Shown here in pieces: positions 4,518 through 5,630 of a DNA stretch of 7,339 nt (its first letter is position 1; each line of letters starts with the position of its first letter). The position numbers were made by a program, and so were the translations under genes. Under the pieces are notes generated by a model that made no database searches, was not told where the DNA came from, and was given only the letters and a program-made list of their open reading frames with translations. Location: NCBI GenBank assembly GCA_009921265.1, contig RFYV01000104.1:1-7339 (forward strand). The letters are read 5' to 3'. Origin of the DNA: Betaproteobacteria bacterium (GTDB taxonomy: Bacteria; Pseudomonadota; Gammaproteobacteria; Burkholderiales; Burkholderiaceae_C).

Positions 4518-4682
4518 TCAATTTAACAAAGATTCAATTTTTTTAATAACTTCTTCGTCAGTTATCAATTTCATTTCACCAAAACTTTCAACAATAGATT
4601 CTGGTTCAATTCCATTTTCCAAACAAAATTCATACCAATCAGAAAACATTTGAGTTGCTTCATCTTGTTTTGCAGAATTCAT
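4518..4682 (-). CDS. small acidic protein (54 aa), not in the supplied ORF track
   Basis: Hand translation gives MNSAKQDEATQMFSDWYEFCLENGIEPESIVESFGEMKLITDEEVIKKIESLLN, with a stop at 4520-4518. Its ATG (4682-4680) overlaps the TGA (4681-4679) of the upstream gene as ATGA, the classic translational-coupling arrangement. It is followed 20 nt later by the next gene's RBS and ATG. Confidence 0.6.
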   Translation of the reverse strand: MNSAKQDEATQMFSDWYEFCLENGIEPESIVESFGEMKLITDEEVIKKIESLLN

Positions 4683-5053
4683 TTTTTGTCGGAGATAGTT
4701 ACAGGTACTTCAATCTCATCATGTCCTGTTATCGACAATGACATGCCTGGAACACACAAACCGTCAGTAGTCCACTTATGTTTAGCACTTGCAGAAATTT
4801 CTTTATGTGCTTTCGGCGTCATTTTCGTTTTTGCAGAGAAATCGCCAACCACAGTTACTTCAAGTCCATTTAATTGAATATCAAGTTTTCCTTTGTAACA
4901 TTCAGCAGGATATATATAAGTTGAAATCAAAGAGTCTTCATGCTTGATGCTCACATACGCTTTTCCGTTTTCAATTGCATTTTTTACTTCTTCTAAATCA
5001 GATTTATCACATTTGCACTTGAATGAGAATTTTGAAGTTGCAAAAATTGGCAT
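4679..5053 (-). CDS. hypothetical protein (124 aa), middle gene of the AT-rich cassette
   Basis: ATG at 5053-5051 is preceded by AAGGAGA (5064-5058) with a 4-nt spacer. This SD overlaps the stop codon of the upstream gene by one base. The track's 160-aa version is an unsupported upstream extension overlapping that gene. No family recognised. Confidence 0.8.
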   Translation of the reverse strand: MPIFATSKFSFKCKCDKSDLEEVKNAIENGKAYVSIKHEDSLISTYIYPAECYKGKLDIQLNGLEVTVVGDFSAKTKMTPKAHKEISASAKHKWTTDGLCVPGMSLSITGHDEIEVPVTISDKK

Positions 5054-5063
5054 ACATTTCTCC

Positions 5064-5630
5064 TTAAACTTTGTTAAACAAAAACAACTCCCACTTTGCA
5101 ATCGAAAGATTAACAAGAGCAGAACTTTCAATGATGTACTTAAATTTGCGTCGGTGCTCAATAATATCGTTTACATAACCCCAAGAAATATCTTTACTCT
5201 TGGCACTTGTGTAAGACAAAATAATTCTATCTACAGGGCAAATTTTTGGTTCTTGAATTAAGTTCAAGCACCACAAATACTTTATGTAAATCGAAATGCT
5301 TTTCTGTGCATGGGAGATTCTAAATTCCGAACCATCTCGACTATTGCTTTGGAAATATGCTCCGAATTTATTGTTCATTTCTTTTTTAAGTTCAGAAACA
5401 ATTAACTCATATTCAGATATTGCAACCTCATTTTCAAACTTCAATCCAATTTTTCGCAAGCAGTCAAACCAGTAACTTCGAATCTCTTTTCTTATCGGTA
5501 TTGCCAAATCTTTTGTGTATAAAACATTGTGTTGTACGGCCGCTTTTACTGCATTCGATAAAGCAACTTCAATCGAATTAGTTGGATTGTATTTTTTTAA
5601 GAACTCTGTTTTACACACTTCAACATTCAT
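5064..5630 (-). CDS. hypothetical protein (188 aa), first gene of the AT-rich cassette
   Basis: ATG at 5630-5628 lies 1 nt after the stop codon of the integrase relic. The product appears helical and contains FRISHAQKSISIYIKYLWCLNLIQEPKICPVDRIIL. I cannot assign a family from memory. Confidence 0.8.
   Translation of the reverse strand: MNVEVCKTEFLKKYNPTNSIEVALSNAVKAAVQHNVLYTKDLAIPIRKEIRSYWFDCLRKIGLKFENEVAISEYELIVSELKKEMNNKFGAYFQSNSRDGSEFRISHAQKSISIYIKYLWCLNLIQEPKICPVDRIILSYTSAKSKDISWGYVNDIIEHRRKFKYIIESSALVNLSIAKWELFLFNKV

Follow-up and report, generated by a model that had tools for sequence, protein, structure and literature searches.

Small integrative elements and phage satellites, among them the P4-like satellites and the phage-defence elements, are known to harbour cargo and defence genes in hotspots adjacent to the integrase gene. 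The locus analysed here lies in a 7,339-nucleotide (nt) stretch of DNA from a freshwater betaproteobacterium (NCBI GenBank assembly GCA_009921265.1, contig RFYV01000104.1; hereafter the window) and consists of three short genes, named A, B and C, placed near the integrase gene of a 7.2-kb element integrated in a tRNA-Cys gene. It resembles the known hotspots in being part of a small tRNA-integrating element with a fixed backbone and one variable slot on the integrase side, and in that the short accessory operons found in the slot differ between copies of the element. However, none of its cargo genes matches a known defence family in PADLOC, and no satellite, primase or capsid-related genes can be recognised with Pfam or PHROGs. 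Furthermore, its cassettes are bordered by copies of the integrase 3´ end, a feature that, to our knowledge, has not been described from such hotspots. The three proteins are new families with unrecognised folds, and an accessory operon in an integrase-adjacent slot is familiar in kind.

The comparison of related loci showed that A, B and C are genuine protein-coding genes under purifying selection, and that they make up a single translationally coupled operon, which the tRNA-Cys element carries as an exchangeable cargo cassette. Tentatively, and at somewhat less than an even chance, the cassette is proposed to serve in genetic conflict, phage defence being the likeliest type. In this proposal, the basic, enzyme-like protein A would be the effector acting on nucleic acid, and protein B together with the small acidic protein C would constitute a portable accessory pair (sensor, adaptor or inhibitor), which at other loci would be combined with different DNA- or NAD-directed effectors.

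A coupled and conserved three-gene operon

The three genes follow one another on the minus strand. Gene A (5630..5064), encoding 188 amino acids (aa), ends in a TAA stop at 5066-5064 and is followed by gene B (5053..4679, 124 aa) and gene C (4682..4518, 54 aa). The A–B junction (5054..5065) comprises a 10-nt gap at 5063-5054 and a Shine–Dalgarno-like AAGGAGA at 5065-5059, which shares the last two bases of the A stop codon. Genes B and C overlap by 4 nt (4679..4682), the start of C lying within an ATGA at 4682-4679 that is shared as start and stop, an arrangement implying that B and C would be translationally coupled. This tight packing had been described in the original prediction, made from the sequence alone, and both junctions are read in the DNA as it had proposed.

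The borders of the block are equally close. The ATG of A (5630) stands 1 nt past the TGA (5634-5632) that closes a 91-nt duplicate of the integrase 3´ end, exactly where the block had been said to begin. At the other side, 20 nt separate the end of C from the start codon (4497) of a gene for a 77-aa protein, with an AGGAG within those 20 nt; the predicted spacing of about 20 nt up to the ribosome-binding site is correct in length, but it is measured to the start codon and includes the AGGAG.

The ABC block has a G+C content of 0.328, compared with 0.458 in the integrase gene and 0.411 in the remainder of the element, and no other 1113-nt stretch of the window is as low (window median 0.406). 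At third codon positions, the G+C content is 0.32 in A, 0.26 in B and 0.15 in C, against 0.42 in the integrase gene. The earlier claim of AT-richness had been based on four G+C counts (13, 17, 30 and 26 of 60), all exactly correct. One promoter-like match is located at 7160-7133, inside the integrase gene; below it on the minus strand, down to position 4100, neither a sigma-70-like promoter nor a terminator was found in the remainder of the integrase gene, the ABC block or the gene for the 77-aa protein. Expression would probably take place by read-through from the integrase gene and from a lipoprotein gene that precedes A, and the hand-over of ribosomes at each junction would set the ratio of the three proteins.

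The trio has been found in three diverged lineages. The window lineage is represented by 13 public contigs, all encoding the exact A protein. In contig RFUN01000105.1 (locus L002; GCA_009922935.1, a metagenome-assembled genome labelled ‘Betaproteobacteria bacterium’), A and B are annotated as hypothetical proteins, and C, without an NCBI accession here or elsewhere, is called in the JGI, ENA and Logan gene predictions. The second lineage (L032-L037) carries A´ (65% identity), B´ (89%) and C´ (65%), which in the sister element L032 follow an integrase 95% identical to that of the window. The third (L051, L052, L055 and L056) has an A of 55-66% identity, a C of 62-75% and, as the middle gene, a 137-aa distant B, detected by profile comparison (hhalign probability 89%, E 2e-6) at ~21% identity and with no BLAST link.

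Between the window and L032, the ratio of nonsynonymous to synonymous substitution rates (dN/dS) is 0.10 for A, 0.035 for B and 0.15 for C, with synonymous divergence (dS) saturated at ~1.6-2.1. The junctions of L032 match the design of the window (TAAGGAGAAA...ATG for A–B and ATGA for B–C), those of L051, L052 and L056 show a 12-nt gap followed by a 4-nt overlap, and the B–C ATGA overlap is present in L032, L050, L051, L052 and L056. Given its dN/dS of 0.15 at saturated dS and the retention of these junction signals, C is a conserved coding gene. The 54-aa acidic open reading frame singled out in the original prediction is thus real, with 52-75% identity in other contexts and homologs at seven metagenome loci.

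An exchangeable slot bordered by integrase 3´-end copies

Nearly all of a 7,237-bp element is contained in the window; its insertion site is the 3´ half of tRNA-Cys(GCA), and it is seen at window positions 247-7339 and at positions 830-903 of locus L001. In L001, the same DNA lies between 75-nt direct repeats 7,237 bp apart, one of which is the 3´ part of tRNA-Cys(GCA). In the window, the far end of the element is marked by attR (247..321), a displaced copy of the 3´ part of this tRNA gene plus ~20 nt. Moreover, contig L002 carries the element in circularly permuted form: its two ends overlap exactly over 99 nt, and the junction contains a single att site. The element has accordingly been seen both integrated, through the L001 repeats, and as a circle, through the L002 permutation, although L002 may derive from the assembly of tandem copies instead of a circle. 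A tyrosine integrase (6056..7339, minus strand, 427 aa; Pfam Phage_integrase, E 1.4e-9), attachment repeats with a tRNA 3´ end and evidence of excision are all present, as in tRNA-targeting integrative elements.

The variable slot extends between the integrase gene and the gene for the 77-aa basic protein (4264..4497, minus strand), which forms its right border. In the window, it is occupied by a gene for a 109-aa predicted lipoprotein (5724..6053, minus strand; signal-like N-terminus and lipobox LTAC, read from the sequence) and then by ABC. In L032, A´B´C´ come directly after the intact integrase gene and are followed by genes of 148 and 165 aa, and in L035 and L037 a different, 143-aa lipoprotein-like gene precedes A´B´C´. 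In L059, with the same integrase, the slot contains Sel1-repeat, 127-aa and 271-aa genes and no ABC. Since sister elements do without it, ABC is cargo and not an element function; a role in maintenance of the element (excision or replication) was rejected on the same ground, the backbone being the same. The proposal that ABC is a discrete, exchangeable unit in the integrase-proximal slot is upheld by the different genes that other elements hold there. Surface exclusion is a frequent role of small lipoproteins encoded by mobile elements.

On its left, the ABC cassette is bordered by an integrase 3´-end relic comprising the last 30 codons (5634..5724, minus strand), and the counterpart of this relic is the resident integrase 3´ end (6058..6148, minus strand); the two copies of this 91-nt direct repeat are 87% identical. 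The relic shares 98.8% identity across 83 nt with the integrase 3´ end of L032. Because it matches the element in which A´B´C´ adjoin an intact integrase gene, the simplest history starts with an integrase–ABC arrangement. The lipoprotein gene and one repeat make up a 424-nt one-gene unit that is not at this position in L032 and that, in this simplest history, would have entered later at the integrase 3´ end, pushing the old 3´ end downstream. The original prediction had regarded ABC as the insertion next to the integrase; instead, the newest insertion consists of the lipoprotein gene with a new integrase 3´ end.

Every cassette in the window, L032, L035/L037, L038, L051, L057 and L059 comes after a fresh or decayed copy of an integrase 3´ end, with lengths from 30 to >125 nt. 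The relics outside the window lie at L032 2647-2706, L035 587-676, L038 2468-2518 and 4100-4168, L051 769-897, L057 9316-9450, and L059 11775-11870 and 12241-12273. In the cleanest cases, the first cargo ATG is found 1-3 nt after the relic stop. In two cassettes with unrelated cargo, the left repeat boundaries are 3-4 nt apart at most, and the L035 relic is an apparent hybrid of two integrase types, both of which recombination within the repeat would produce. The mechanism could be either a site-specific capture or the tandem accretion of related elements followed by deletion, with the longer relics of other integrase lineages fitting accretion and deletion better. The 20-nt core of the repeat was not found in IMG/VR, and a literature search yielded nothing directly relevant on integrase 3´-end duplications bounding cassettes.

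The arrangement recalls the integrons, in which short cassettes, co-directional and for the most part without promoters, are likewise lined up beside a tyrosine recombinase gene, bounded by repeats and with newcomers appearing on the recombinase side. However, the repeat here duplicates the end of the integrase coding sequence, the cassettes follow the recombinase gene on its 3´ side and share its orientation, and several of them contain 2-3 genes. The integrase scores only 20 bits against TIGR02249 (cutoff 265) and 16.6 bits against PRK15417 (cutoff 435), and on either strand the 91-nt repeat is less prone to fold than its shuffled controls (z-scores +1.4 to +2.6). With a repeat that forms no attC-like hairpin and an integrase that is not of the IntI type, the cassette array is not an integron, and this reading was rejected.

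It has also been considered that the slot might be an undescribed gene-capture platform by which ABC would have been spread as a new, mobile and self-contained conflict or defence system. According to this proposal, the ~90-nt 3´ segment of a non-IntI tyrosine integrase gene would be the insertion site, and each incoming cassette would bring a copy of the segment, restoring the integrase reading frame. As the first cargo gene starts 1-3 nt past the integrase stop, it would be expressed by translational coupling, and the B–C pair would be reused with other effectors, namely a UDG-like protein and a RecB-like nuclease-helicase. This proposal is rather unlikely.

Protein families, neighbourhoods and candidate functions

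Searches of Pfam, NCBIfam, PHROGs and PADLOC-DB v2.0.0 gave no usable match for A, B or C in the first three collections, and none for A or C in PADLOC at E≤1. The statement that none of the three proteins could be recognised is borne out by these searches; the structural models of A and B also lack a match in the PDB. A screen against PADLOC, suggested as a way to place the cassette among defence systems, brought no reproducible match for any of the three. The anti-phage, toxin–antitoxin-like or immunity role that the original prediction had read from the context is a tentative one.

Protein A is basic, with an isoelectric point (pI) of 9.1, and belongs to a uniformly basic family (pI ~9) of at least 42 homolog clusters, with identities down to 38%. 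The family alignment contains 18 invariant residues, including H107, Q109, K110, S111, K117, W120, C121, C131, P132 and D134, which concentrate in the motif FRISHAQKSISVYxKHLWC...CPVDRIIL...WGYVN...EHR...WEL. The AlphaFold2 model is all-alpha (pLDDT 94.5, pTM 0.92). Considering the family pI, the cluster of invariant residues and the confidence of the model, A looks like a nucleic-acid enzyme.

The motif of A recalls the Lys...Asp arrangement of endonuclease III. As in the HhH-GPD glycosylases, an invariant Lys near a helix start (AQKS) is followed by a Pro/Cys-rich loop and by an invariant Asp opening the next helix (CPVDR). However, A is without the GxG hairpin, neither Pfam nor a search of the A profile against PDB sequences gives a match, and the best Foldseek TM-score is 0.34, to 1xg7, with a probability of 0.08 that is not significant. 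The assignment of A to the HhH-GPD glycosylases was consequently rejected, having no Pfam, PDB profile or Foldseek support.

Protein B is an alpha/beta protein of near-neutral pI (AlphaFold2 model pLDDT 95.6), and its family is small and fast-diverging. Only 2 close clusters exist among 5.8 billion proteins, and a HMMER scan of 1.8 billion representatives added just ~6 further relatives. Two relatives join the B domain to a second domain that elsewhere is encoded by a separate neighbouring gene. The weak PADLOC matches of B to CARF3 (E 0.0037) and PDC-M42B (E 0.016) were rejected as chance, because each is produced by 1 of 16 family members and goes unreproduced in the 15 others. A TBP-like or triphosphate-tunnel fold, suggested by the order of secondary-structure elements and a few low-TM matches, was likewise dropped.

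A further small family of ~150-190 aa, with a C-terminal WLEEN...GxW motif, adjoins or is fused to B-like genes (L043 522-977, L038 2584-3147, L057 7756-8280 and the C-terminal halves of P0051/P0052). One of its members carries DUF4116. These cases suggest that small genes are shuffled in a broader network across the freshwater elements.

Outside the trio, B and C recur with other partners. In L050, a protein that three weak but concordant matches tentatively place near the UDG superfamily is followed by B (68%) and C (65%), with no A. In L044, also without A, a RecB-like nuclease/helicase (TIGR03491, E 7.8e-108) is followed by a C-like (60%) and then a B-like gene. Other B-family genes are placed after a DUF2779 protein with a MmeI-type enzyme nearby, after a TIR protein, and upstream of a nuclease-like 165-aa protein; B-like genes are also seen without C. 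C is the more conserved member of the pair across contexts. From these neighbourhoods, B–C appears to be a portable core pair reused across contexts. The other slot cargo, namely the predicted small lipoproteins and a putative PD-(D/E)xK-like protein, would fit a slot that gathers conflict functions.

Protein C is very acidic (pI 4.05, net charge ~ -9.5), with a conserved central motif, FSxWYxFCLENGIEPExIV...GEMxLIT. Small acidic proteins that inhibit by mimicking DNA are known, among them Ugi, phi29 p56, Ocr and ArdA. C is like them in size and charge, and in adjoining probable DNA-acting proteins, such as the UDG-superfamily-like protein of L050. However, it shows no sequence similarity to any of them in Pfam, PHROGs or NCBIfam, and has no homolog in the phage genomes searched.

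This resemblance underlies an alternative in which the cassette would be an anti-defence or establishment module, with C as a DNA mimic and its partners blunting host restriction or other defences on entry. Its place on a mobile element, just behind the integrase gene, would suit such a role. Nevertheless, relatives of A are missing from IMG/VR, from 50,697 phage genomes and from 72,556 plasmids, and the phage genomes likewise contain no relative of B or C. These absences also led to the rejection of a phage or plasmid origin. In addition, B-family genes adjoin defence-type genes in chromosomal islands, and A resembles an enzyme more than an inhibitor. An anti-defence role is thus considered quite improbable.

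The cassette could also be an addiction module, similar to toxin–antitoxin systems, that stabilises the element, with A or B being toxic and C neutralising it, for instance as a nucleic-acid mimic. The type II and tripartite toxin–antitoxin systems share with this locus the compact operon with a stop/start overlap, the tiny acidic protein and the mobile setting, and an element that excises as a circle could be lost. The order of B and C is reversed in L044, as occurs among toxin–antitoxin families, and C accompanies several different DNA-acting partners. However, there are three genes here, and no toxin or antitoxin family or domain is matched in Pfam, NCBIfam or PADLOC. C contains no DNA-binding domain recognisable with Pfam, and B has few conserved residues. 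Furthermore, A, the largest gene, stands alone at 25 of 25 genome loci, which indicates that it is not intrinsically lethal, and some sister elements are entirely without ABC. Of the features of type II systems, the adjacent, overlapping small genes are found, but not the recognised families or a toxin that never occurs without its antitoxin. This makes an addiction module a distinctly unlikely explanation.

Several results also weigh against the proposed conflict module. Neither the A model (searched against the PDB and BFVD with Foldseek, E≤0.001) nor the B model (searched against the PDB, E≤0.001) has a fold match, so no activity can be assigned to A or B, and none of the three proteins matches known defence, toxin–antitoxin or anti-defence families. 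The B family has almost no invariant residues, so that a single conserved function is not required; this is more suggestive of a binding or scaffold protein than of an enzyme. All 25 distant genomic A homologs lack B and C, even when searched with hidden Markov models; the trio is therefore not obligate, and A alone is evidently tolerated. Finally, the genes beside the A and B families are enriched in mobile-element and defence-type functions, but such neighbourhoods argue by association, from a few dozen loci of which many lie on short metagenome contigs. The expectation that the three genes go together thus holds for three diverged lineages but not for these 25 loci, nor for the loci where B–C occur without A.

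The 25 genomes span Bacteroidota, Planctomycetota, Spirochaetota, Nitrospirota, Verrucomicrobiota, Clostridia, Actinomycetota and Proteobacteria. Their A loci share no conserved neighbour gene, and no consistent small acidic open reading frame lies downstream of A. The Pfam families around them include WYL, TnsD/TniQ, RepA, transposases, YgjP and PIN, and the PADLOC models include WYL, Cas3c-like and PDC-S01. A homologs tend to be found at the edges of or within mobile DNA, for example after RepA, and also beside PIN, WYL, DUF4143-ATPase and Cas3c-like genes. Distant A homologs were further seen immediately after guaA, the two genes overlapping at their ends, and immediately after the tnsD gene in a Tn7-like element (L008 6370-8540; L018 6115-8543), in both cases as the outermost gene of the inserted DNA.

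A mostly solitary A, the great rarity of B and C (C, like B, forms 2 close clusters among 5.8 billion proteins) and the variable neighbours of all three families are what would be expected if the three were unrelated ORFan genes without a joint function, hitch-hiking together and linked only within a recombining cassette. This is rather unlikely, given that gene order and coupling signals are kept despite saturated dS and a middle gene at ~21% identity, that all three genes are under purifying selection, and that the B–C linkage recurs in unrelated contexts.

Should the cassette prove to be a conflict or defence module, it would be a new one of three proteins, containing two families with confident predicted folds that lack recognisable solved counterparts, and the B–C pair, combined with several DNA-directed effectors, would offer a handle on related systems. 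If phenotypically silent, it would be one more ORFan operon on a mobile element. The setting may outweigh the cassette itself: a 7.2-kb element has been caught both integrated and circular, and a slot array with integrase 3´-end copies suggests a simple route for small elements to gather and express accessory genes.

The remaining backbone of the element

The backbone follows the order integrase, 77-aa gene, ~300-aa gene, convergent 190-aa recombinase, gene-poor stretch and DUF6641 gene. The 77-aa gene keeps its position in L032 and L059, and the DNA immediately before it is the most AT-rich of the element. Its product had been labelled H-NS-like; a resemblance to Histone_HNS_N does exist in Pfam, but below the threshold (E 0.029, 14.7 bits against a cutoff of 24.5), and the C-terminal H-NS DNA-binding domain is not matched in Pfam, the tail of the protein being basic.

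The longest open reading frame next to it (3312-4328, minus strand, TTG start) would encode 338 aa and overlaps the end of the 77-aa gene, and gene callers choose an internal start that gives 302 aa (3312-4220), with no family match. The backbone is a mosaic, since identity to L032 is 55% for this ~300-aa gene and 95% for the integrase. Convergent with it lies the gene for a 190-aa tyrosine recombinase comprising the catalytic domain only (2743-3315, plus strand; Phage_integrase, E 1.7e-26), which is conserved in all the sister elements.

An Rfam scan of the window gave no match, and the ~880 nt at 1865-2742 contain no convincing open reading frame. This stretch includes short repeats, namely CGTTCGTKCTAT at 2143 and 2169, GTTCGTTGCG at 2461 and 2479, and two copies of TACGCAGTCTG at 2525, and could be an origin or a binding region for a recombinase or regulator. 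Finally, a 21-nt palindrome with the core TTTACGTAAA is located within 1400-1431, between the divergent DUF6641 gene (956-1393, minus strand) and a 102-aa gene (1556-1864, plus strand), and may be an operator.

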